Source: an uncultured Candidatus Saccharibacteria bacterium (lineage in GTDB: Bacteria; Patescibacteriota; Minisyncoccia; UBA6257; 2-01-FULL-56-20). Taken from it: DNA of 64,000 nucleotides. The position numbers were made by a program, and so were the translations under genes. Every line of letters begins with the position of its first letter. The stretch's first letter is position 1. Below are positions 8,827 to 60,380 of this stretch, in pieces. The stretch lies in NCBI GenBank assembly GCA_964416665.1, contig CAYQFA010000001.1:40082-104081 (forward strand). The letters are read 5' to 3'. The notes under the pieces are model-generated. The model was not told where the DNA came from. It was given only the letters and a program-made list of their open reading frames with translations, and made no database searches.

Positions 8827-9463
8827 AACCTATCACAAAGTAGCGGCAATAGTCCTTTCGATCGCGATCCTCGGCGTCGCGCTTTACGGCTCGTACCTTC
8901 CGATGAGGAAAGCGCAGATGTTCATCGCCACGTTACAGAGCCTCCAGACCACTCCCGCGACATCATTGTCGGATCTTAAATCTCGCCTTTCTATACCGCT
9001 CGATTATCCTTCGCCGATCGGTCAGGAAGAACTCGTGCGCAACCTGGCGAACAGCGTCCTTTCATTCATACAGCAAGGCGCCGACCCCTCCTCGACCGCC
9101 CAGCTCATGAGTTTCTTGAACAGCTACTACAATCCGATTTTAAATACCGGCAAGGGCATGAGCTTTGGGCAGGATGTTTATCTTGAGGGCGCCATCAACG
9201 AGATAGCGTTTGCCGAGACCGGCGATCAGTCGTATCTTGCTGCCGCCAAGCAGTGGTATCTGGAGGCACGTCAACTCGGTCCCAATCGCCCACAGTCGCT
9301 TTATGGTCTGTTCGATGTTTATCGCGCCGCGAACGACGCGCCGGACACTATCGCGATAGGGGGGCAAATCATCGCCAATTGGCCGAGTGATGCCCGCATT
9401 CAGATGGCACTCCAGCAGTTTATGGCAGCTCAATCTTCGACAGCGACCTCGACGGGGAAGTAG
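8807..9463 (+). CDS. hypothetical membrane-anchored protein (N-terminal TM, helical/TPR-like C-terminal region)
   Basis: The ATG at 8807 (MATMEDRTYHK…) overlaps the end of the Wzy_C gene by 20 nt. The track ORF actually begins further upstream in the same frame. No recognisable catalytic motif. Confidence 0.4.
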   Translation: MATMEDRTYHKVAAIVLSIAILGVALYGSYLPMRKAQMFIATLQSLQTTPATSLSDLKSRLSIPLDYPSPIGQEELVRNLANSVLSFIQQGADPSSTAQLMSFLNSYYNPILNTGKGMSFGQDVYLEGAINEIAFAETGDQSYLAAAKQWYLEARQLGPNRPQSLYGLFDVYRAANDAPDTIAIGGQIIANWPSDARIQMALQQFMAAQSSTATSTGK

Positions 9464-9528
9464 GACGCGGCGATACAATAGAAATCGTAAAAAAGTACTT
9501 GCTCCCTGTGAGGATGGCGGTCGTCTTG

Positions 9529-9558
9529 TTGACTGGCACTGTCAATAAATTGTAATAT
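9529..9558 (+). promoter_or_regulatory. promoter heading the + strand glycan gene block (rfbF … hddC)
   Basis: TTGACT (9529-9534), ~18 nt, TAATAT (9553-9558). The -10 ends only 6 nt before the rfbF ATG, suggesting a leaderless transcript. Confidence 0.4.
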
Positions 9559-9564
9559 CATACC

Positions 9565-10347
9565 ATGAAAGTCGTGATTCTATGCGGTGGCTACGGTACG
9601 CGAATAAGGGACGTAGCCGATGATATCCCGAAGCCGATGATCCCGATCGGGGATCGGCCCATCGTGTGGCACATCATGAAGTATTATTCCACCTTCGGGC
9701 ATAATGATTTTGTTTTATGCCTTGGATATAAGAGTGAGGTGATCAAGAATTACTTCGTGAATTACGAAGCCCGGGCCAACGACATCCAGATAACGCTGGG
9801 AAAAGACAGTGGCGTCGGTTATGCCACGGCTCACGACGAAGCGGGTTGGAAGATCACAATGGCCGAAACGGGTTTGAACGCTCTGACCGGCGCCAGGATA
9901 AATCGGATCAAAAAATATATAGGAGACGATAAATATTTTATGCTGACCTACGGCGATGGCGTCGGCGATGTCGATATTGATGCTCTTTTGGCTTTCCATA
10001 AATCTCACGGTAAAATAGCGACCTTGACCGGAGTGCGGCCGCCGGGTCGTTTCGGTGAGCTTGAGATAGGCCCCAACAAGGAAGTTTTGGGGTTCAACGA
10101 GAAGCCGCAGGCGAGCGCCGGGCGGATCAATGGAGGTTTCTTTATTCTGAACACCGAGGTTTTCGATTATCTTTCCGACGACGAGAGATTGATGTTCGAG
10201 CAGGAACCGATCAAAAAATTGGTGGCTGACGGCCAGTTGATGGTCTTTGAGCACGATGGGTTTTGGCAGCCGATGGACACATCGAGGGATTATGCGCTGT
10301 TGAACGGTCTTTATAATGATAAAAAAGCGCCATGGATAAAGTGGTGA
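9565..10347 (+). CDS. rfbF: glucose-1-phosphate cytidylyltransferase
   Basis: 260 aa. Nucleotidyltransferase N-terminus MKVVILCGGYGTRIR and RfbF-like body (…YGDGVGDVDIDAL…). Confidence 0.8.
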   Translation: MKVVILCGGYGTRIRDVADDIPKPMIPIGDRPIVWHIMKYYSTFGHNDFVLCLGYKSEVIKNYFVNYEARANDIQITLGKDSGVGYATAHDEAGWKITMAETGLNALTGARINRIKKYIGDDKYFMLTYGDGVGDVDIDALLAFHKSHGKIATLTGVRPPGRFGELEIGPNKEVLGFNEKPQASAGRINGGFFILNTEVFDYLSDDERLMFEQEPIKKLVADGQLMVFEHDGFWQPMDTSRDYALLNGLYNDKKAPWIKW

Positions 10348-32647: not shown

Positions 32648-33568
32648 ATGATGTACGACGTCATTATCATCGGTGGCGGTCCCGGCGGCATCGCTGCCGG
32701 GGTTTACGCTGCGCGAAAAAAGATGAAGACGCTCTTGATCACCGACAGTTTCGGCGGACAGTCGCTGACGTCCGCGGGGATCGAGAATTGGATCGGCATA
32801 AAATCGATCTCGGGCTACGACCTCGCGAAGATGCTTGAGGAACATTTGCGTGCGCAGCAGGGTATCGAGATCGTTGATAACGACCTTGTGAGCGGCGTCA
32901 CAAAAAAGGATGGCGGTTTTGATGTTGTTACAAAGGGTGGTAAAACGTTCGAGACGAAATACATCCTTATGGCTTCGGGGAGCAGGAGAAAAAAGCTCGG
33001 TATTCCCGGCGAAGCGGAATTTGACGGCAAGGGCGTGGTGTATTGCTCGACGTGCGACGCGCCGATCTTCGGCGGTAAGACCGTGGTGGTCGTAGGCGGT
33101 GGAAATTCTGCGCTCGAATCGGTCGTCGATCTTCTGCCCTATGCGTCAAAGATCTATTTGATGGTTCGCAGTGACGTCATGCGGGGTGATCCTGTCACGC
33201 AGGAAAAATTGAAGAGTCATCCGCAGGTGGAGATTCTTTTCAATGCGGCGCCGCAGGAAGTAATTGGAAAAGATTTTGTGACCGGTTTGCGCTACAAAGA
33301 CGCGAAGACCGGCGAGCAAAAGGAATTGGCGCTCGACGGCGTCTTTGTCGAGATCGGTCTCGTGCCGAATTCCGATTTTGTAAAAGACCTCGTGACGCTG
33401 AACGAATTTGGCCATGTGATCGTCGATCACAAAACACAGCAGACGTCCTGCCCCGGCATCTGGGCCGCAGGCGACGTAAGCGACGTGCTCTACGACCAGA
33501 ATAATATCTCCGTAGGCGACTCTATCAAGGCAGTGTTGAATATCTACGACAGGGTGAAGAAGGATTAG
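32648..33568 (+). CDS. trxB: thioredoxin-disulfide reductase-like FAD/NAD(P) oxidoreductase
   Basis: FAD site DVIIIGGGPGGIAAG, redox-active CSTC, NAD(P) site VVVVGGGNSALE, and C-terminal GIWAAGDV. Confidence 0.7.
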   Translation: MMYDVIIIGGGPGGIAAGVYAARKKMKTLLITDSFGGQSLTSAGIENWIGIKSISGYDLAKMLEEHLRAQQGIEIVDNDLVSGVTKKDGGFDVVTKGGKTFETKYILMASGSRRKKLGIPGEAEFDGKGVVYCSTCDAPIFGGKTVVVVGGGNSALESVVDLLPYASKIYLMVRSDVMRGDPVTQEKLKSHPQVEILFNAAPQEVIGKDFVTGLRYKDAKTGEQKELALDGVFVEIGLVPNSDFVKDLVTLNEFGHVIVDHKTQQTSCPGIWAAGDVSDVLYDQNNISVGDSIKAVLNIYDRVKKD

Positions 33569-33683
33569 GAACGCAAGGTACTCTTTGTTTTGGAGGTCGC
33601 GTCGTTTTCTGCTGAAAACGCGCTACGCCTCGGCGCCTACGCGCCTCCGGCATACCTCCAAAACAAAGAGTACCTTGCGTTCC
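33568..33683 (+). repeat. 116-nt compound palindromic element: perfect 29-bp inverted repeat enclosing two internal hairpins
   Basis: Outer arms GGAACGCAAGGTACTCTTTGTTTTGGAGG (33568-33596) and CCTCCAAAACAAAGAGTACCTTGCGTTCC (33655-33683). The interior contains CGTTTT-CTGCTG-AAAACG and a GC-rich hairpin. Starts at the last base of the trxB stop codon. Confidence 0.6.
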
Positions 33684-33752
33684 TAATCCTTCTTCAGTTA
33701 GCCAGAATCAAGATTAATCCCCAGAGGGAAAGCCAAATAGCAAGGGTACGCA

Positions 33753-33791
33753 CTTTTGCGGCCTGCTGCGAAGACGCAACGGCCGCAAAAG
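33753..33791 (+). repeat. conserved-loop hairpin family member A
   Basis: Stem CTTTTGCGGCC/GGCCGCAAAAG (11 bp); 17-nt loop TGCTGCGAAGACGCAAC. Confidence 0.6.
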
Positions 33792-33837
33792 CATGTGCCC
33801 TTGCTATTTAGCCCAACTTGATGTATCATAATCCATA

Positions 33838-37060: not shown

Positions 37061-37066
37061 AACAAC

Positions 37067-37139
37067 AAAACAACCCCACCCTCTTTTGAAAACCTGCTGT
37101 GCGGACACAACGGTTTTCAAAAGAGGGTGGGGTTGTTTT
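37067..37139 (+). terminator. pnp terminator; also conserved-loop hairpin family member B
   Basis: Perfect 28-bp stem AAAACAACCCCACCCTCTTTTGAAAACC/GGTTTTCAAAAGAGGGTGGGGTTGTTTT around loop TGCTGTGCGGACACAAC, followed by TTTTGTTTCTCTT. Confidence 0.65.
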
Positions 37140-37165
37140 GTTTCTCTTGTGCTAGAATAAAACAA

Positions 37166-37528
37166 ATGGAAAATACTTCTAACTTTCAAGGTAGTATTCC
37201 CGGCGCACCGCCACCTCCATCGGAAGTGAAAGTCCGCACCATGCGCAGCGATTTGGAATCTATGACGAGAAGCGGCGGTGGTGCACCGCGCTTCGAGAAC
37301 GTGGCGGTCACGGGGCTGACCATGCAGGACGGAGCGCCACAGGCGGCAGAAACCGCCGGGGGACAAAGCGGTGCCGTTGGCACATCATTGCGATCGCTTT
37401 TGGGACCTGTTTTGGTCATAATCGTCGCCCTCGTCGCCCTCGCAGTCGTAGGGTATTTTGCATACACCGTTTTTAATTCTTCCGCGAGCCAAACGCCGGC
37501 ACCCGCGGCAACTCCAACGACCCCGTAG
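37166..37528 (+). CDS. hypothetical protein with a C-terminal TM helix (Pro/Ala-rich)
   Basis: ATG at 37166 (MENTSNFQ…). The upstream GTG of the track ORF lies inside the terminator stem. No homology recognisable. Confidence 0.3.
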   Translation: MENTSNFQGSIPGAPPPPSEVKVRTMRSDLESMTRSGGGAPRFENVAVTGLTMQDGAPQAAETAGGQSGAVGTSLRSLLGPVLVIIVALVALAVVGYFAYTVFNSSASQTPAPAATPTTP

Positions 37529-50138: not shown

Positions 50139-50945
50139 ATGAAAAAAATCACCAAATTGGTACTGCCCATTGCCGGGCTCGGCAAACGCCTGCTTCCTCT
50201 TACTGCGATAACTCCAAAGAATCTCATTCCCGTGAATGGCAAACCCATTTTGGAGTATGTCCTTGAAGAGGCGGTTGCGAGCAAGATAAAAGAGGTGATA
50301 CTTATCATCAATCCCAAACACCTTAAGGATTTCAAGGCGTATCTTGCAAAGAACAAGAAGCGGTTTCCCACGCTTACGTTCCATATCCGCATCCAGGAAA
50401 CGCCGGGCGGAAATGGCCATGCGATCGCTCAGGCTTATGATCTCGTGAAAGGCGAGCCTTTCGCGGTACGTTTCTGTGATGATGTGCTTTCGGGCGAGCC
50501 GGCTGCACTTCCGGCGCTCCTTGAGATCTTCAAAAAATATCAGGCGTCGGTGGTGCTTCTGGAAGCGGTTCCCAAGGCTGATGTCTCGCGGTTCGGGGTC
50601 GTTGGGTTTGAAAAGGGGAAGGCGGCAACGGCCTCCTTCGCTGGCGGGACCATTTATAAAATAAACAAGATAATTGAAAAGCCAAAAACGAAAGACGCAC
50701 CTTCGAATTTGATCATCGTCGGCGGTTATGTGCTTACCCCGGACATACTCCGCAATCTAAAAATGGTTGCCGATACTTTGCCGGTCGTTGCCGACGATGC
50801 GTTGCCGCTCGCGGTGGCGCTGCAGATCGAATTGATCGTTAAGGGCAGAATTTATGGCTGGGAATTTCCCGGCAAGCGCCTTGATTGCGGCACGTTGGAA
50901 AAGTTGCAGCAAACGGAAGAATACCTGAGAAACAACAAGCAGTAA
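50139..50945 (+). CDS. galU: UTP-glucose-1-phosphate uridylyltransferase-like nucleotidyltransferase
   Basis: N-terminus KLVLPIAGLGKRLLPLTAITPKNLIPV and a GalU-like body. Confidence 0.65.
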   Translation: MKKITKLVLPIAGLGKRLLPLTAITPKNLIPVNGKPILEYVLEEAVASKIKEVILIINPKHLKDFKAYLAKNKKRFPTLTFHIRIQETPGGNGHAIAQAYDLVKGEPFAVRFCDDVLSGEPAALPALLEIFKKYQASVVLLEAVPKADVSRFGVVGFEKGKAATASFAGGTIYKINKIIEKPKTKDAPSNLIIVGGYVLTPDILRNLKMVADTLPVVADDALPLAVALQIELIVKGRIYGWEFPGKRLDCGTLEKLQQTEEYLRNNKQ

Positions 50946-51026
50946 TCCGGCAAAACAAAACAGTCCCTTTCCGGCTCGTGATGAGAATAATTCGCCGGAA
51001 AGGGACTGTTTTGTTTTGCCGGATTA
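50941..51026 (+). repeat. perfect 34-bp palindrome IR1 with an asymmetric 18-nt centre
   Basis: GTAATCCGGCAAAACAAAACAGTCCCTTTCCGGC - TCGTGATGAGAATAATTC - GCCGGAAAGGGACTGTTTTGTTTTGCCGGATTAC. The first arm contains the galU stop codon. Confidence 0.7.
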
Positions 51027-51089
51027 CTGCTTTATTTTCTTTAGGTTCTTCCGTTTGCTGCAACTTTATCTTTCCGGCAAAGCCATACG

Positions 51090-51179
51090 GCAATTGCAGG
51101 ATAGCAAGGAGAATGGCTTTCCGGCGAATTATTCTCATCACGAGCCGGAAAGCCATTCTCCTTGCTATCCTGCAATTGC
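51090..51179 (+). repeat. perfect 36-bp palindrome IR2 with the same 36-nt core as IR1 in opposite orientation
   Basis: GCAATTGCAGGATAGCAAGGAGAATGGCTTTCCGGC - GAATTATTCTCATCACGA - GCCGGAAAGCCATTCTCCTTGCTATCCTGCAATTGC. The centre is the reverse complement of the IR1 centre. Confidence 0.7.
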
Positions 51180-51181
51180 TA

Positions 51182-51190
51182 TGGTATAAT
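51182..51190 (+). promoter_or_regulatory. extended -10 element (TGGTATAAT) 6 nt upstream of the regulator ATG
   Basis: TGGTATAAT followed by CCGGCA-ATG. It is identical to the box upstream of recA. Confidence 0.4.
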
Positions 51191-51196
51191 CCGGCA

Positions 51197-51862
51197 ATGC
51201 TAGAGAACGGCAAGGATCGCTTTATTTTTACGAAATCTTATGAGATTGCTTACGCCTTGTTTCGTATGGCAGGGCAAATTGAAGAAAAGGATTTTTCCGA
51301 AAGGCTGAGGGTGCTTGGGGGATCGTTGCTTCAGGCTTCGGCAGGGCAGGATTACGTCGAGGCGAGCAAATCATTGCAAATGATCGAGTGTCTGGCAAAG
51401 TTCGCGGGAGATGTGAACATAATTAGCTCGGCGAACTCTAATATCTTCCTTGGGGAGATATACACACTCGATGCGGCAATTATAGAGTACCGCAATGCGG
51501 CAAATAACGACCGGCTGAACTTGTCGGATATCTTTTCCAAAACCGAACCGGAAGTGACCCCTCCGCCGGTGGTTTATGATAATCCGGCAAACAATAATCC
51601 GGCAATGGAAATTGCCGCAAGCGAGATGCCGGTAGCCGATAGTGCGGCAAATAATATGAAAGCGGAAATGCGGCAATCTACCATCGTGGAAAGAATCCGG
51701 CAATCCGGCAATTGCCGCTTGAAGGATATCAGGGAACTTTTGCCGGATACCAGCGAGCGGACCATCCGATATGACCTTCAATCCCTTCTCGAGAAGAACC
51801 TTATCGAGCGGGTAGGGGATGGAGGGCCGTCGGTGTTTTATCGGTTGCGGGAGTTGGCATAG
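51197..51862 (+). CDS. putative transcriptional regulator: N-terminal helical domain, low-complexity linker, C-terminal DeoR-type winged HTH
   Basis: The C-terminus STIVERIRQSGNCRLKDIRELLPDTSERTIRYDLQSLLEKNLIERV is DeoR-HTH-like. ATG at 51197; the track ORF starts earlier, inside the palindromes. The linker DNA carries the AATCCGGCAA repeats. Confidence 0.45.
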   Translation: MLENGKDRFIFTKSYEIAYALFRMAGQIEEKDFSERLRVLGGSLLQASAGQDYVEASKSLQMIECLAKFAGDVNIISSANSNIFLGEIYTLDAAIIEYRNAANNDRLNLSDIFSKTEPEVTPPPVVYDNPANNNPAMEIAASEMPVADSAANNMKAEMRQSTIVERIRQSGNCRLKDIRELLPDTSERTIRYDLQSLLEKNLIERVGDGGPSVFYRLRELA

Positions 51863-56083: not shown

Positions 56084-56119
56084 AAAACTCCCCGGCGAAA
56101 GCCGGGGAGTTTTTGTTTG
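56084..56119 (+). terminator. intrinsic terminator of the giant surface-protein gene
   Basis: AAAACTCCCCGGC-GAAA-GCCGGGGAGTTTT followed by TGTTTG. Confidence 0.7.
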
Positions 56120-57042: not shown

Positions 57043-57123
57043 AGCAGGAGATTAGGTTGTGCCATTTTATGACCTGCTGCGCAGACGCAACGGTCATAAA
57101 ATGGCACGACCTAATCTCCTGCT
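57043..57123 (+). repeat. conserved-loop hairpin family member C
   Basis: 32-bp stem (one G-U pair) AGCAGGAGATTAGGTTGTGCCATTTTATGACC/GGTCATAAAATGGCACGACCTAATCTCCTGCT; loop TGCTGCGCAGACGCAAC. Confidence 0.65.
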
Positions 57124-57273: not shown

Positions 57274-57326
57274 CCCTCTTCTTTTCGACCGAATCGCGCG
57301 GACGCTAAAGGTCGAAAAGAAGATGG
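57274..57326 (+). repeat. divergent hairpin family member E
   Basis: Stem CCCTCTTCTTTTCGACC/GGTCGAAAAGAAGATGG (one mismatch); loop GAATCGCGCGGACGCTAAA retains the apical GCG-CGGA-CGC mini-helix. Confidence 0.45.
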
Positions 57327-57484: not shown

Positions 57485-57579
57485 CAGACAGAACAAGCCA
57501 GAACAGAATACTCTTTTTCGACCTGCTGTGATTACACAACGGTCGAAAAAGAGTATTCTGTTCTGGCTTGTTTTGTCTG
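57485..57579 (+). repeat. conserved-loop hairpin family member D (39-bp stem), on the tRNA-Gly 3' trailer
   Basis: Arms CAGACAGAACAAGCCAGAACAGAATACTCTTTTTCGACC and GGTCGAAAAAGAGTATTCTGTTCTGGCTTGTTTTGTCTG. Loop TGCTGTGATTACACAAC. Starts 3 nt after the tRNA 3' end and is followed by a T-rich tract. Confidence 0.65.
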
Positions 57580-57613
57580 GTCTGGTTGCGGCCGAAATGG
57601 TAGAATTTTCCGC

Positions 57614-58471
57614 ATGGGAATTCTTCTCGCGCTTGTCGCGTTGCTCTCATGGGGCTTGGGAGATTTTTTGATCCAAAGGAGCACGAGAAAATTTGGGGAT
57701 TGGGTCGCTCTTTTTTACATCACGGCATTCGCGTCAATCGTTCTGCTCCCTTTTGTTTATAAGGACATCGCTCGTTCATTGGACGCTCATGGGATGTTGT
57801 TGTGGTTTGCGAGCTTCGCGATCCTGTTCGCCGGTCTTTTGGATTTCGAGGCGCTCCGGGTGGGAAAAATTTCGGTGGTAGAACCGATCTATGCGTTGGA
57901 AATTCCCGTAGCGGCCATTCTGGCGGCGTATATCATTCACGAACGGCTTAGTGTTTTGCAGATCGTTTTCGTGGCAATCCTTATGGTCGGCATTTTTCTT
58001 ATTGCCACGACGTCGTTCCAGCGGCTTAAAAAGATCAGCGCGGAACGCGGCGTGTGGCAGGCGGTTTTGGGGACCATTGCCGTGGGTATCGTGAATTTTC
58101 TGTTCGGCGTGGGATCGCGGGAAACGAGCCCGCTCATGATAAATTGGTTCACCAGTATTTTTATTGCGCTGGTCGCCCTTATTTATTTGGCCTCGACCTC
58201 GCGATTGCATGAACTTGGCGGCAACTTCAAAAACGGGAAAGCGCTCATTCTGAGCGTCGGGTTTTTTGATAATCTTGCATGGGTGACGTTTTCATACGCC
58301 ATGCTTTATATTCCAATTGCGATAGCGACCGGTATCAGCGAAGGATATATCGCTTTTGCCGGAGCGCTGGGGTTGTTCTTCAATAAGGAAAAGCTGCGCC
58401 GCCATCAATGGGCCGGTTTCTTTTTAGTGGTGATATCAGTTGTGCTATTAGCGTTCGTCACAAAGGATTGA
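57614..58471 (+). CDS. EamA/DMT-family transporter
   Basis: Ten TM helices with a duplicated EamA-like architecture. Confidence 0.6.
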   Translation: MGILLALVALLSWGLGDFLIQRSTRKFGDWVALFYITAFASIVLLPFVYKDIARSLDAHGMLLWFASFAILFAGLLDFEALRVGKISVVEPIYALEIPVAAILAAYIIHERLSVLQIVFVAILMVGIFLIATTSFQRLKKISAERGVWQAVLGTIAVGIVNFLFGVGSRETSPLMINWFTSIFIALVALIYLASTSRLHELGGNFKNGKALILSVGFFDNLAWVTFSYAMLYIPIAIATGISEGYIAFAGALGLFFNKEKLRRHQWAGFFLVVISVVLLAFVTKD

Positions 58472-58479
58472 GATAACAT

Positions 58480-58537
58480 AAACACCCCCTTCTTCAAAAG
58501 CATTATTCTTATCATGCTTTTGAAGAAGGGGGTGTTT
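58480..58537. terminator. bidirectional intrinsic terminator between convergent EamA gene and glmS; overlaps the glmS stop codon
   Basis: Perfect 24-bp stem AAACACCCCCTTCTTCAAAAGCAT/ATGCTTTTGAAGAAGGGGGTGTTT with a 10-nt loop, flanked by an A-run on one side and a T-run on the other. Confidence 0.7.
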
Positions 58538-60380
58538 ATTCTACCGTTACCGATTTCGCCAGATTTCGTGGCTTGTCCACATCGCATCCGCGCGCGACGG
58601 CAACGTGATAGGCGAAAAGATAAACGGGGATCGCGGCGAGGATAGGCATGAGCGCCTCGTGGCAATCGGGGATAGCGATGACGTCGTCGGTCCAGGCGCG
58701 CAACTCGGCTGCGGCAGCGCCAGCGGTCGTGAGCGCGATGACCGGCCCGCCGCGCGCCTTCACTTCTTCGAGGTTCGATTTGGTTTTCTCGTAGGTCTTG
58801 TCTTGGGGAATGATAAAGAACGTCGGCGTCTGTGCATCGATCATCGCGATCGGCCCATGTTTAAACTCGCCCGCGGCGCACCCTTCGGCATGCAGATAGC
58901 CGACCTCCTTCAGTTTGAGCGCGCCCTCAAGCGCGATAGGGAAGTTGTGGTTGCGTCCGAGGAAGAACATGTGCTGGACATGCGCGTATTTTTCCGCGGT
59001 TGCTTTTATTGTCGGTTCCTGTTCGAGGACTTTTTTGAGGAGCATCGGCAGAAGTTCAATTTCTAAAGATATCTTTTCCGCTCCAACGGCGTTTTCGTTT
59101 TCGCGCCGCCGCGCCATTTCCGCTGTGATCAACGTGAGCACGGTGAGTTGCGAGATAAACGCCTTCGTCGAAGCGACGCTGATCTCCGGTCCTGCGTGGT
59201 TATAGATGACGGCGTCGGTTTCCCGCGCGATGGTCGATCCGACCGTGTTCACGATGCCGAGCGTGCGCGCGCCACGCCGCTTTGCTTCGCGGATCGAGGC
59301 CAGCGTGTCTGCGGTCTCGCCTGACTGCGAGATGGCGATGGCGAGCGTTTTGGGGCGGAGCGGCGCCTTCCGATAGCGAAATTCGGAGCCGATATCAACT
59401 TCGACGGGGATATTGGCGTAGGCTTCAAGAAGGTATTTCCCGACGTATCCCGCGTGCGCCGCGGTGCCGCAGGCGACGATCGTGATATTCTCGATATCAT
59501 GCATGGCTTCGACGGCTGCGCCGAGCGTTTTGCCGTTCGCGCGCAGCGCGTTCACGACCACATCCGGCGCCTCAAAGATCTCTTTGTGCATAAAATGAGG
59601 GTGGCCATTTTTTCCCGCGTCCTCGAGGGTGACGGTCAGCGTCCGTACCGCATGCTCAACCTTTTTTCCATCAAGCGTTTCGATGGCAAGATTACCAGCT
59701 CCGACTTCAGCGATTTCTCCGTCATCGAGATAGATGACTTTTTTGGTGCGACTTAGGATCGCCGATGCATCCGAGGCGATGATGTTCTCGCCGTCGCCCA
59801 CGCCGATGATGAGCGGGCTCGCGCTTCGCGCGCAGACGATCGTTTTCGGATCGTTCGCGGCGATCGCGGCGATCGCGTAAGTGCCGCGTATTTCTTTAAG
59901 GGCACGCTGTGCGGCGTGGAAGAGTCCATGCTCGTCGCCCTCGTCATCCTCCGATTTTTTGCGATGATATTTTTCGATCAGGTGCGCGAGGACTTCCGTG
60001 TCGGTGTCCGAAGAAAATCGGTGCCCGTCGGATATCAGGTCTTTCTTGAGCTCCGCATAATTTTCGATGATGCCGTTATGGACGACAAGAATGGTGCCGC
60101 TGCAGTCGGCGTGAGGATGCGCGTTCCTTTCTGACGGCGCACCATGGGTCGCCCAACGTGTGTGCGCAATACCGATATGGGCCTTTTGTGCGCCGCCGTT
60201 ATCGCTGAGCTTCGCTTCCAGATTTGCGACCCGTCCGGCGGCGCGGATCCAAAGAACTTTGCCGTCGGTTATCGCTGCGACACCCGCTGAATCGTAGCCT
60301 CGATATTCAAGCCGCTTCAAACCGTCCACCAGAATGGGGATCACGTTCTCGTCGCCGATGTAGCCGATGATGCCGCACAT
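58536..60380 (-). CDS. glmS: glutamine--fructose-6-phosphate aminotransferase
   Basis: N-terminal MCGIIGY (Ntn glutaminase), two SIS domains, and C-terminal …KSVTVE. The ATG at 60380 gives the canonical Cys2 start; the track ORF starts 8 codons upstream. Confidence 0.9.
   Translation of the reverse strand: MCGIIGYIGDENVIPILVDGLKRLEYRGYDSAGVAAITDGKVLWIRAAGRVANLEAKLSDNGGAQKAHIGIAHTRWATHGAPSERNAHPHADCSGTILVVHNGIIENYAELKKDLISDGHRFSSDTDTEVLAHLIEKYHRKKSEDDEGDEHGLFHAAQRALKEIRGTYAIAAIAANDPKTIVCARSASPLIIGVGDGENIIASDASAILSRTKKVIYLDDGEIAEVGAGNLAIETLDGKKVEHAVRTLTVTLEDAGKNGHPHFMHKEIFEAPDVVVNALRANGKTLGAAVEAMHDIENITIVACGTAAHAGYVGKYLLEAYANIPVEVDIGSEFRYRKAPLRPKTLAIAISQSGETADTLASIREAKRRGARTLGIVNTVGSTIARETDAVIYNHAGPEISVASTKAFISQLTVLTLITAEMARRRENENAVGAEKISLEIELLPMLLKKVLEQEPTIKATAEKYAHVQHMFFLGRNHNFPIALEGALKLKEVGYLHAEGCAAGEFKHGPIAMIDAQTPTFFIIPQDKTYEKTKSNLEEVKARGGPVIALTTAGAAAAELRAWTDDVIAIPDCHEALMPILAAIPVYLFAYHVAVARGCDVDKPRNLAKSVTVE

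Follow-up and report, generated by a model that had tools for sequence, protein, structure and literature searches.

Two perfect palindromes with a common inverted core between galU and a regulator gene of an uncultivated Patescibacteria (CPR) bacterium

The galU–regulator boundary

The window analysed here is a 64-kb stretch (64,000 nucleotides) of DNA from an uncultivated Patescibacteria (CPR) bacterium. At the boundary between galU and the gene for a regulator on the same strand it contains two palindromes, IR1 and IR2 (Table 1). In a preliminary description of the sequence, both were reported to be free of mismatches and to contain the same 36-nt core in opposite orientations. This is borne out by our measurements: neither palindrome has a mismatch over the extent first described, and the core is present in exactly two copies in the 64-kb window, inverted, where none is expected.

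Table 1. Features of the galU–regulator boundary and further hairpins of the same family in the window.
Feature	Position	Strand	Basis or remark
galU (UTP-glucose-1-phosphate uridylyltransferase)	50139..50945	+	Pfam NTP_transferase and orthologues
IR1 perfect part, 39-bp arms and 18-nt loop	50937..51032	+	Sequence analysis
Tip B copy 1	50967..51002	+	CTTTCCGGC - TCGTGATGAGAATAATTC - GCCGGAAAG
IR1 outer right arm, derived inverted copy of galU codons 50900–50936	51033..51067	+	Complementarity, 0/2000 shuffles
Spacer between IR1 and IR2	51068..51089	+	
IR2, 36-bp perfect arms and 18-nt loop	51090..51179	+	Sequence analysis; promoter conserved in L003, L035, L034
Tip B copy 2	51117..51152	-	Same as copy 1, loop in opposite orientation
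Regulator promoter	51162..51190	+	TTGCTA, 17-nt spacer, TG-extended TATAAT; orthologous promoters
Regulator, C-terminal DeoR-type HTH domain, 221 aa	51197..51862	+	Pfam PF08220
Family member, tip A2 (loop TGCTGCGAAGACGCAAC), upstream of rpsO	33732..33812	+	Right arm carries rpsO -35 box
Family member, tip A1 (loop TGCTGTGCGGACACAAC), downstream of pnp	37064..37142	+	Right arm is left flank inverted
Family member, tip A3, upstream of tRNA-Arg	57043..57123	+	
Family member, tip C (loop GAATCGCGCGGACGCTAAA), downstream of tRNA-Arg	57274..57326	+	
Family member, tip A4, directly 3' of tRNA-Gly	57485..57579	+	

The arms of IR1 are longer than the 34 bp first given. They are perfect over 39 bp (50937–50975 and 50994–51032) around a loop of 18 nt (50976–50993), and an imperfect extension reaches 50900–51067. 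As had been noted, IR1 takes in the galU stop codon; the perfect arms cover the stop and the last two sense codons, and the outer left arm is formed by the last 46 nt of the gene. The segments 50923–50975 and 50994–51046 are 89% complementary, and the outermost segments, 50900–50921 and 51046–51067, are 100% complementary once a 2-nt indel is allowed. On the right side this outer part consists of a 17-nt diverged patch and the 2-nt indel, followed by 22 perfect nucleotides, and its score was reached in none of 2000 shuffles. The galU-side arm is assigned as ancestral since the C-terminal sequence of GalU, LEKLQQTEEYL..., is kept in relatives. The element TGCTGCAAC in the spacer repeats, in inverted form, the galU codons GTTGCAGCA.

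The inner GC-rich stem of IR1, CAGTCCCTTTCCGGC/GCCGGAAAGGGACTG, has AAAACAAAA on its 5' side and TTTTGTTTT on its 3' side, 15 nt past TAA; the latter (51008–51016) is the first nine bases of the run GTTTTGTTTTGCCGG. IR1 folds with an energy of -73 kcal/mol; for the whole region 50890–51200 the value is -204.8 kcal/mol (z-score -24). From this anatomy we infer that IR1 is an intrinsic terminator of galU. It resembles the known intrinsic (bidirectional) terminators in its succession of A-tract, GC-rich stem, loop, return stem and TTTTGTTTT directly after a stop codon. The terminator reading is weakened by the 18-nt loop, which is atypically large; loops throughout the family are 17–19 nt and stems 36–39 bp or more, whereas intrinsic terminators have loops of 3–8 nt. 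The consensus terminator scanner accepts loops only up to 8 nt and therefore misses IR1. At comparable sites, relatives free of these hairpin tips have ordinary terminators with GAAA tetraloops.

IR2 has arms at 51090–51125 and 51144–51179. By the usual mark of an intrinsic terminator, a GC-rich stem-loop with a T-run right behind it 3' of a stop codon, IR2 does not qualify; it is without a T-tract and overlaps a -35 box. Its right arm is the ancestral promoter region with the -35 hexamer TTGCTA (51162–51167) and its left arm is the derived inverted copy. IR2 may be regarded as a second boundary hairpin, adjoining the regulator promoter. The distance from its end to TGGTATAAT (51182–51190) is 2 nt and not 3 as first stated. 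A continuation of IR2 outside these arms, over the -10 box and the start codon, is not significant (618/2000 shuffles). The regulator begins at the ATG at 51197, as judged from the orthologue starts MLENGKDRF and MIENGKDRF. With its promoter only 6 nt upstream of this codon, the regulator mRNA would be leaderless. Between the two palindromes, positions 51070–51082 (CTTTCCGGCAAAG, then CCAT) look like a tip B (described below) without its loop, to which the opening bases of IR2's right flank have been attached.

A family of hairpin tips

The 36-nt core, which we call tip B, belongs to a family of tips that share a CTTT.../...AAAG closing stem and an asymmetric 17–19-nt loop, 36–41 bp in all. 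The window holds seven of these in 64 kb, of three types (A, B and C). The arms around them are wholly different between copies except for closers of 9–13 nt, which read CTTTTNNGACC or CTTTCYGGC. Within the tips there is conservation of the internal loop (TGCT ... AAC), and the variation among family-A loops is confined to an apical 3-bp helix and the tetraloop, with covariation; this suggests a structure that is recognised by something. Relative to transcription the loops lie in both orientations (about 8 + and 5 -, including flips between orthologues). Loop orientation was considered as a predictor of the ancestral arm and rejected as uninformative, since it fails in two of the seven cases and the loops are seen to flip.

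A homologue of tip B, termed B2, is found in the pnp terminator of the relative L030 (CTTTCTGGC - 18 nt - GCCAGAAAG; 28/36 identical). The B loop contains GUGAUGA, which is box C-like. An assignment as a box C of the TIGR or snoRNA type was dropped, as the motif is not conserved in B2.

A covariance model of the A and C tips recovers exactly ten in 207 kb of the clade, and no members besides these ten, which were used to build it; it finds none in L028/L035, L005, L003 or L004. We also scanned public collections, none of which includes the source sample, so that the counts say nothing about copy numbers in this genome. In these, a 22-mer of the core has no exact match in the GTDB species genomes or IMG/VR, the 18-mer B loop has 19 exact matches in JGI metagenome contigs, the family-A pattern has three chance matches in GTDB genomes of unrelated phyla, and tips A1 and C have none in IMG/VR. 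None of the 19 JGI matches has flanking stems, and they are therefore attributed to chance. Against Rfam, only tRNAs reach the gathering threshold; in E-value mode the hairpins give sub-threshold matches to miRNA precursors, which reflect generic long hairpins. A Pfam scan of the approximately 50 proteins of the 64-kb window identified no transposase, recombinase, reverse transcriptase, RAYT, IS200/IS605 TnpA or HUH protein. As judged from the sequences compared, the tip family is small and lineage-restricted.

Orthologous sites in relatives

In four relatives the galU–regulator intergenic region is free of hairpins (L003, L004 and L005, 48–89 nt; L035, about 80 nt), and the GalU C-terminus and a TTGCTA-17-TATAAT promoter are conserved there. 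Since the flanks are kept in these hairpin-free orthologues, the comparison shows that one arm of each hairpin is ancestral and that the other is a derived inverted copy.

The fifth relative, L034, is a different species (GalU 90% and ClpB 95.5% identical) with the same two-hairpin layout. Alignment shows its outer arms to be orthologous to those of the window (AATCCGGCAAMACAAA...; GCARTTGCAGGATAGCAAGG / CCTTGCTATCCTGCAATTGC), with the same outer boundary. The hairpin centres differ from those of the window and match loops from other window loci. The centre of the galU hairpin in L034 is the C loop, identical at 19/19 positions to window 57291–57309, and the other is an inverted A1 loop, identical at 17/17 positions to the reverse complement of window 37095–37111. 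The aligned sequences thus show tip replacement, on the side of either the window or L034. On this comparison the two-hairpin layout is older than the split from the species of L034, and the tips are not. We note that the absence of hairpins in the four relatives and the different centres in L034 argue against the regulatory site that had been suggested earlier.

The arms have also changed in concert. Relative to L034 there are eight double changes in IR1 and four in IR2. Of the 37 arm positions in the orthologous hairpin upstream of tRNA-Arg, 24 show no change, 12 have changed on both arms and still pair, and one has changed on a single side. It was assumed earlier that palindromes so long and so perfect do not persist without a function, a premise that is not supported by these 12 positions, at which both arms differ and still pair.

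Further sites are filled in some genomes and empty in others. Upstream of tRNA-Arg, what is a small hairpin in the window has a C tip in L034. Downstream of pnp, the hairpin has tip A1 in the window and B2 in L030, and in both an inverted copy of the left flank is present; there is no hairpin at this site in L028, L029, L032 or L033, and sequence resembling the left arm is kept in L028/L029. Upstream of rpsO, the site is empty in L028 and L030 and filled in the window and in L032, with the promoter -35 in the right arm. The loop of the L032 hairpin is a flipped A1 loop (- orientation, compared with + at window position 33764), which shows loop flipping between aligned orthologues. No consistent direct repeat, as would be left by target-site duplication, distinguishes filled from empty sites. 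The distribution of tips is patchy: there are none in L028/L035, though these are as close to the window as L034.

Origin of the hairpins

In our view there is about an even chance that IR1 and IR2 are lineage-specific gene-boundary hairpins, associated with a terminator and a promoter, that were built, homogenised and tip-converted by template switching of the DNA polymerase, the cause that we favour. Each hairpin has two layers, an exchangeable tip and long arms of local sequence. One arm was there before, as the 3' end of galU and its A-tract in IR1 and as the -35 region of the regulator's promoter in IR2, and the other is an inverted copy of it. Within a hairpin, the nascent strand would fold back, which would make the arms identical, lengthen them into the flank and invert the loop. 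Between hairpins, the shared CTTT/AAAG closers could act as microhomology for copying one tip into another. The tips are exchanged and also flipped, and at this locus both hairpins now have B, one copy inverted. The shared 36-nt core would be a copied hairpin tip; it is not a conserved regulatory signal. Template switching between the arms of inverted repeats is documented to make the arms alike, expand them and invert the spacers (PMC8604942, PMC5941160, PMC13100816).

The sites described above have the marks of quasipalindrome template switching: a template arm and a copy arm can be identified, double changes outnumber single changes by 12 to 1 and there is one loop flip. Perfect pairing with 12 of 37 positions changed on both arms fits arm-to-arm copying. 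The Ripley model for such mutations would account for arms that are perfect and have grown into the flank, for double changes in concert between orthologues, and for loops in both orientations. Its usual cases have arms of about 5–20 bp and spacers of a few nucleotides, whereas the arms here are 30–75 bp and extend into coding sequence and a promoter. Furthermore, the model does not predict a defined set of 17–19-nt loops common to unrelated sites. Identical loops of this length at non-orthologous sites, in intergenic DNA that is otherwise poorly alignable, are hard to derive from random replication errors; they would fit an enzyme dedicated to their mobilisation or, alternatively, a loop under purifying selection. 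The patchy distribution, with no tips in L028/L035, looks like the invasion of an element and, like the covariation in the family-A loops, also speaks against template switching. An enzyme acting in trans may, besides, be encoded outside the 64 kb of the genome covered here.

The template-switching interpretation would mean that zero mismatches and a shared core can arise from copying rather than from selection on sequence. It would offer a third view of long perfect palindromes in a reduced CPR genome, besides functional sites and unstable oddities, namely gene-boundary hairpins that maintain their own perfect pairing, extend into the end of a coding sequence and into a promoter, and trade tips.

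It is possible, although we think it only about half as probable, that the tips are non-autonomous REP-like mobile elements of about 40 bp, mobilised by a hairpin-recognising enzyme supplied in trans. Insertion followed by fold-back synthesis would duplicate one flank in inverted form, and the mirror orientation would result if B were inserted into both hairpins or at both ends of one break. Such elements would account for tips that are present or absent at orthologous sites, for identical loops at unrelated loci and in different genomes, for patchiness among equidistant relatives and for discrete tip types with common conserved closers. Addition of the same strand to both 3' ends of a break, with fold-back, would give the arrangement X-B(+)-X' ... 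Y'-B(-)-Y that is observed. This two-ended break was rejected as the origin of IR1 and IR2: L034 shares the arms and not the tips, so that in at least one lineage the arms and the present tips arose on separate occasions. For insertion more generally, a two-ended break may be the mechanism. Weighing against mobility are the lack of any transposase, HUH or recombinase gene in the 64-kb window, the lack of consistent target-site duplications, and the scarcity of the B core, with two copies in the window, no exact match in the GTDB species genomes or IMG/VR and only the 19 stemless chance matches in JGI. Among the options listed in the preliminary description, a non-autonomous hairpin-type element comes closest, given the dispersed tip family; an operator, an RNA switch and an invertible segment are not supported.

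A more specific proposal, which we hold a little more tentatively still, is that the tips are a previously undescribed minimal selfish element of the CPR: a hairpin of about 40 bp whose copies are added at gene boundaries, either to 3' ends of DNA or to the loops of hairpins already present, and then prime fold-back synthesis. It would be mobilised by a hairpin-specific enzyme encoded elsewhere in the genome. Each insertion would duplicate the target flank in inverted form, and the terminator-like palindrome made at once in this way could swallow stop codons and -35 boxes. Should a dedicated enzyme take part, the tips would represent a new type of minimal mobile element, recognisable by the inverted duplication of its target.

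Comparison with known elements indicates partial likeness. REP, BIME and REPIN sequences of proteobacteria are likewise palindromic units of about 35–40 nt repeated in extragenic DNA at gene ends, found in either orientation and sometimes as inverted pairs within a single intergenic region, and REPs can be terminators or transcript stabilisers (PMC12306157). In REPs it is the stem that is conserved, together with a 5' GTAG/GTGG (or CGTC) head; in the hairpins described here conservation lies in the loop and a short closer, the stem being for the most part local sequence, and the tip closers have no GTAG head. The tips are few in the 64 kb of the window and in the 207 kb of the clade, and no RAYT gene is seen in the 64-kb window. 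In a REPIN the whole doublet is repeated, whereas the DNA between the cores here is an inverted copy of local flanks. MITEs and the palindrome-associated elements derived from IS200/IS605 (PATEs) are also small, non-coding, hairpin-forming and dispersed, but the tips have no conserved terminal inverted repeats, target-site duplication or partner transposase in the window. A classical MITE, an outcome raised in the earlier account, was rejected: the core has two copies in the window and was not found at many loci in the collections scanned, there are no target-site duplications and the arms are not conserved between copies.

Rather unlikely, in our estimation, is a third explanation in which the tips are selected functional modules, either protein sites or RNA or single-stranded DNA motifs at transcript ends, kept alike by purifying selection. 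The conserved TGCT ... AAC internal loop with its covarying apical helix, and the position of the hairpins at gene and tRNA 3' ends and beside promoters, would be expected of such modules. However, with about eight loops in + and five in - orientation to transcription, the RNA would differ between copies. The tip type also differs at orthologous hairpins, close relatives manage without tips, and no Rfam family matches them, the only matches being those to generic long hairpins below threshold.

We consider it very improbable that the palindromes are operators or cruciform sites for autoregulation by the adjacent DeoR-type winged-helix regulator. IR2 does overlap the -35 box of that gene's own promoter, but the core is absent from every orthologous promoter (L003, L004, L005, L035) and replaced by another tip in L034, and hairpins of the same type lie beside the unrelated pnp, rpsO and tRNA genes. 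A better operator candidate is the 8-mer TCCGGCAA, which the orthologous promoters have conserved and for which the locus is enriched. Even less can be said for an RNA switch between core–core pairing and the two hairpins, or for an invertible segment bounded by the cores. The cores are complementary at 36/36 positions and 114 nt apart, but a forced core–core fold has -112 kcal/mol compared with -205 kcal/mol for the two hairpins (93 worse). The promoter lies downstream of IR2, so that flipping 51003–51116 would rewire neither gene, and no recombinase is encoded in the 64-kb window.

Organelle genomes offer further parallels. In chloroplast non-coding DNA, hairpin 'minute inversions' are known in which loops between inverted repeats flip repeatedly among close relatives. 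To our knowledge, organelle hairpins are not described as having a common set of tips that can be exchanged. In sponge mitochondria, repetitive hairpin-forming elements (RHEs) are reported to invade intergenic DNA (PMC2800124), and in Nematomorpha mitochondria palindromes are reported within coding sequence (PMC6649704). The hairpins of the window are like these in loop flips, intergenic invasion and palindromes that run into coding sequence, and differ in that the others are in organelle genomes. TIGR stem-loop arrays, which belong to RNA-guided systems with Tas (Nop-domain) proteins and are frequent in CPR, also combine variable palindromic stems with short conserved loop motifs; unlike these, the window hairpins are dispersed singly at gene boundaries. 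A TIGR-Tas array as defined in PMC12045711 was rejected, since the hairpins have no box D and the 64-kb window contains no tandem array or Nop-domain protein.

An assembly artefact (fold-back chimera) is the least credible explanation: a contig with a 98%-identical regulator (P0241) does begin 72 nt upstream of the gene and a contig of L029 ends in a 62+62 perfect palindrome, but an independent ENA assembly (L002) is identical over 50850–51260, the orthologous layout is found in a second species, itself assembled twice (L030/L031 and L034), and the hairpins are internal to a contig of 119 kb.

Such hairpins do break metagenome assemblies, and they mislead gene callers, which place the start of the regulator inside IR2. 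A large survey of inverted repeats used a spacer maximum of 8 nt (PMC13155455), a limit at which the tip family would escape detection.

The galU–regulator palindromes

The preliminary description placed two perfect palindromes with an inverted 36-nt core between galU and a regulator gene, and these are real features of the window sequence; the regulator is of the DeoR-type HTH class. IR1 is a perfect inverted repeat as described, but its arms are 39 bp long rather than 34 bp, five base pairs per arm having been missed. With its outward extension IR1 spans 50900–51067, passing through a 17-nt diverged patch and a 2-nt indel and then 22 perfect base pairs, and the score of this outer part was reached by 0 of 2000 shuffles. 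The last 46 nt of galU are therefore present downstream as an inverted copy. The core, CTTTCCGGC-TCGTGATGAGAATAATTC-GCCGGAAAG, occurs in two exact copies in the window (zero expected), inverted relative to each other, giving the layout X-core-X' ... Y'-core(inverted)-Y. As single strands both hairpins have a predicted fold of −204.8 kcal/mol (z = −24).

Coordinates of the features in the window
Feature	Position	Description
galU	50139–50945	upstream neighbour of IR1 and IR2
IR1, perfect part	50937–50975 / 50994–51032	39-bp arms; 18-nt loop; B tip
IR2	51090–51125 / 51144–51179	perfect 36-bp arms; loop is reverse complement of IR1 loop; B tip
Regulator promoter	51162–51167; 51185–51190	−35 TTGCTA; 17-nt spacer; TG-extended TATAAT
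A-type loops	33764, 37095, 57075, 57524	TGCTG-YG-NNNN-CR-CAAC
C-type loop	57291	
TCCGGCAA near regulator	50946, 51016(−), 51073, 51190, 51583, 51598, 51696, 51704, 51740(−)	
TG-extended −10 boxes	51182–51199, 37150–37168, 57596–57616	TGGTATAAT, TGCTAGAAT, TGGTAGAAT
Palindrome at trxB end	33555–33696	perfect 43-bp arms; 56-nt GC-rich centre
EamA/glmS terminator	58478–58539	bidirectional; 29-bp arms; 4-nt loop
PG-binding protein gene terminator	56084–56113	13 bp; 4-nt loop

The window is a housekeeping region of a Patescibacteria genome (CPR, Parcubacteria-type), and the best-named relatives of its proteins are 'Candidatus Liptonbacteria', 'Paceibacterota' and 'Minisyncoccia'. The matching JGI contig is Ga0455670_0001261. 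An assembly chimera was ruled out as the source of the palindromes because an ENA assembly made independently agrees with it base for base.

The C-terminus of GalU (LEKLQQTEEYL...) is kept in relatives. Two arms, IR1 left and IR2 right, are therefore ancestral functional sequence; the latter contains the regulator −35 box and surrounding DNA. The arms that face each other over the spacer (IR1 right and IR2 left) are derived inverted copies. We note that the six mismatches in IR1 (51027–51046 versus 50923–50940) all lie within 13 nt encoding the variable GalU tail. The downstream copy, when reverse-complemented (CTAAAGAAAATAAAGCAGTAA), encodes LKKIKQ*, which is nearer to the tail LKKVK* of L003, the nearest relative, than is the present galU tail, LRNNKQ*. 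It may thus preserve, as a fossil, an earlier form of the gene end.

The locus in relatives and the exchange of hairpin tips

The order ClpB, 247-aa membrane protein, galU, regulator and large PG-binding protein is kept in three database stretches from relatives (L003, L004 and L005), in which the galU–regulator spacer is only 48–89 nt long and contains neither palindrome nor core. The regulator promoter region of a further stretch, L035, is short and has no hairpins. These hairpin-free relatives argue against the core as a regulatory site, on the very point, conservation in sister genomes, by which the preliminary description proposed to judge it. The regulator locus is remodelled in the L028/L035 lineage: upstream of the regulator, L035 has at 9057–9920 a nucleotidyltransferase-like gene of 287 aa, whose C-terminus is unrelated and which is not a galU orthologue.

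L034, which shares a 144-kb contig with L030, carries the same two hairpins at the same place; its GalU is 90% and its ClpB 95.5% identical to that of the window, a distance similar to those of L003 and L035. The outer arms of its hairpins are orthologous to those of the window, being AATCCGGCAA(A/C)ACAAA... 3' of the stop codon for the first hairpin and GCA(A/G)TTGCAGGATAGCAAGG / CCTTGCTATCCTGCAATTGC across the −35 box for the second, and the outer boundary is identical. The centres differ in sequence. The first L034 loop, the 19-nt GAATCGCGCGGACGCTAAA, is also found in the window 3' of tRNA-Arg (57291–57309), and the second, GTTGTGTCCGCACAGCA, matches the window pnp hairpin loop (37095–37111) in reverse complement. 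A homologue of the core is present in the pnp terminator of the L030/L034 relative (CTTTCTGGC, an 18-nt loop, GCCAGAAAG), with identity of 12/18 in the loop and 28/36 overall. The core is therefore one type (B) of an exchangeable hairpin tip, that is, a 36–41 bp hairpin end comprising closing stem and loop.

There are seven tips in the window. Those of types A and C can be aligned with each other, having in common the closers CTTTTNNGACC / GGTCNNAAAAG and a covarying apical 3-bp helix. Over 207 kb of the clade, a covariance model identified exactly ten tips of types A and C: the window has five, L034 four and L032 one. It found none in L028/L035, L005, L003 or L004; the tip-free relatives have ordinary GAAA-tetraloop terminators. 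The hairpin sites are transcription-unit boundaries, namely 3' of galU, 3' of pnp, 5' of rpsO and both sides of tRNA genes, and both loop orientations relative to transcription are found.

The window also has ordinary terminators, one where the EamA and glmS genes converge and one 3' of the PG-binding protein gene (orthologue at L035 14912–14949). Both kinds of terminator, ordinary and tip-bearing, are therefore present in this genome. The palindrome at 33555–33696 takes the trxB stop codon and last four sense codons into its arms and contains CGTTTTC-TGCT-GAAAACG in its centre. With the hairpin at 33732–33812 it makes up another boundary of two hairpins, one at a gene end and one at a promoter, like that of IR1 and IR2.

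Filled and empty sites and the origin of the palindromes

At the site 3' of pnp there is no hairpin in L028, L029, L032 or L033, and L028 and L029 retain an A-rich, C-rich stretch that is the left arm elsewhere. This stretch is followed by the A1 tip and its own inverted copy in the window, and by the B2 tip and an inverted copy in L030. The site 5' of rpsO is empty in L028 and L030. Where it is filled, in the window and L032, the −35 region of the promoter makes up the right arm and an inverted copy of that region the left, which in L032 extends to the trxB stop codon; the loop is flipped between the window and L032. A small window hairpin 5' of tRNA-Arg bears a C tip in L034. A tip is therefore accompanied by an inverted copy of one flank or lies within a pre-existing hairpin. 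When the 37 arm positions of the orthologous hairpin 5' of tRNA-Arg are compared between the window and L034, 24 are unchanged, 12 have changed in both arms with pairing kept and one has changed in one arm. Double changes of this kind relative to L034 number eight in IR1 and four in IR2. At about 5% protein divergence, the paired changes are more easily explained by copying of arm from arm than by independent compensatory mutations.

Polymerase template switching between inverted-repeat arms is documented as homogenizing and expanding the arms and inverting the spacer (PMC8604942, PMC5941160, PMC13100816). As the proposed mechanism, a DNA polymerase switching template between hairpin arms would explain why mismatches are absent, how IR1 grew into galU and how the −35 region came to be copied in IR2, and also the loops in opposite orientations. 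Tip exchange would require more, namely template switching from one hairpin to another, in which the CTTT/AAAG closers common to the tips could serve as microhomology. The identical tract of IR1 and IR2 stops exactly at these closers, beyond which the two sequences diverge (ACAGTCC versus AGAATGG). In our view the core common to IR1 and IR2 is a hairpin tip that has been copied and no conserved signal, and the phenomenon at galU, real and uncommon, is a variant of extragenic palindromic repeats and template-switch palindromes.

The main rival is a REP-like element mobilized in trans, which would fit the patchy distribution, the presence/absence polymorphism and the sharing of identical loops between unrelated loci. 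However, a candidate enzyme was not found among the genes of the 64-kb window, an exact search for the core in GTDB species genomes, JGI metagenome contigs and IMG/VR gave no further occurrence and no consistent target duplication was seen. A minority possibility is that the tips represent a new, minimal kind of mobile element. A selected RNA or protein-binding module is a weakened alternative, given the loop flips and the replacement of tip type at orthologous sites.

The L029 contig ends (1–124) in a perfect, loopless 62+62-nt palindrome directly 5' of rpsO, either an artefact of fold-back by the assembler or a genuine hairpin at which the assembly stopped; the contig of P0241, a 98%-identical regulator, likewise begins 72 nt 5' of the gene. 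The trxB–rpsO spacer, with its two palindromes in the window, is an insertion hotspot in relatives, holding a RelB/ParE toxin–antitoxin pair and a Vgb_lyase-like gene in L030 (6430–6986) and an FkbM-type methyltransferase in L028 (4616–5380). Between the PMM and RNaseH-like genes, the L030/L034 relative (L030 19735–20079 / L034 239–583) carries a bAvd-like gene (PF22296, the accessory protein of diversity-generating retroelements) with several small ORFs, flanked by hairpins of other types with loops of 13 and 17 nt. The stretch seen around this gene has no reverse transcriptase annotation, and the segment is not present in the window.

Termination, promoter and candidate operator

IR1 has an A-tract, a 15-bp GC-rich inner stem and then TTTTGTTTT, which is the anatomy of an intrinsic terminator, and most likely terminates galU. 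There is no T-run at IR2, which we regard as a boundary hairpin. The regulator promoter lies 6 nt before the ATG at 51197 (MLENGKDRF...), the start shown by orthologues, and the regulator mRNA would therefore be leaderless. The TG-extended −10 boxes of three window promoters, each adjoining a hairpin in tight terminator–promoter packing, are 6–11 nt from the ATG, implying leaderless or near-leaderless mRNAs.

The 8-mer TCCGGCAA occurs 14 times in the window compared with 3.9 expected, a count reached in 0 of 100 shuffles, and nine of the copies lie between 50946 and 51747 in the galU–regulator spacer and the regulator gene. Those located between the −35 and −10 boxes or over the start codon are kept in L003, L034 and L035. 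This enrichment and conservation make TCCGGCAA a candidate autoregulatory operator half-site. The paired operator that the palindromes had been suggested to form for the neighbouring regulator is unlikely; this 8-mer, locally enriched and kept in orthologous promoters, is the better candidate. The suggested RNA switch between two alternative long hairpins would require core–core pairing at a cost of 93 kcal/mol. The hairpins differ in every defining feature from TIGR stem-loop arrays, a common type in CPR.

The gene-finder start for the regulator falls within IR2, giving a 249-aa protein both in the window (51113–51196) and in L034 (10001). The true start indicated by orthologues is 28 codons further downstream (221 aa in the window), and the palindrome has caused the start to be misannotated.
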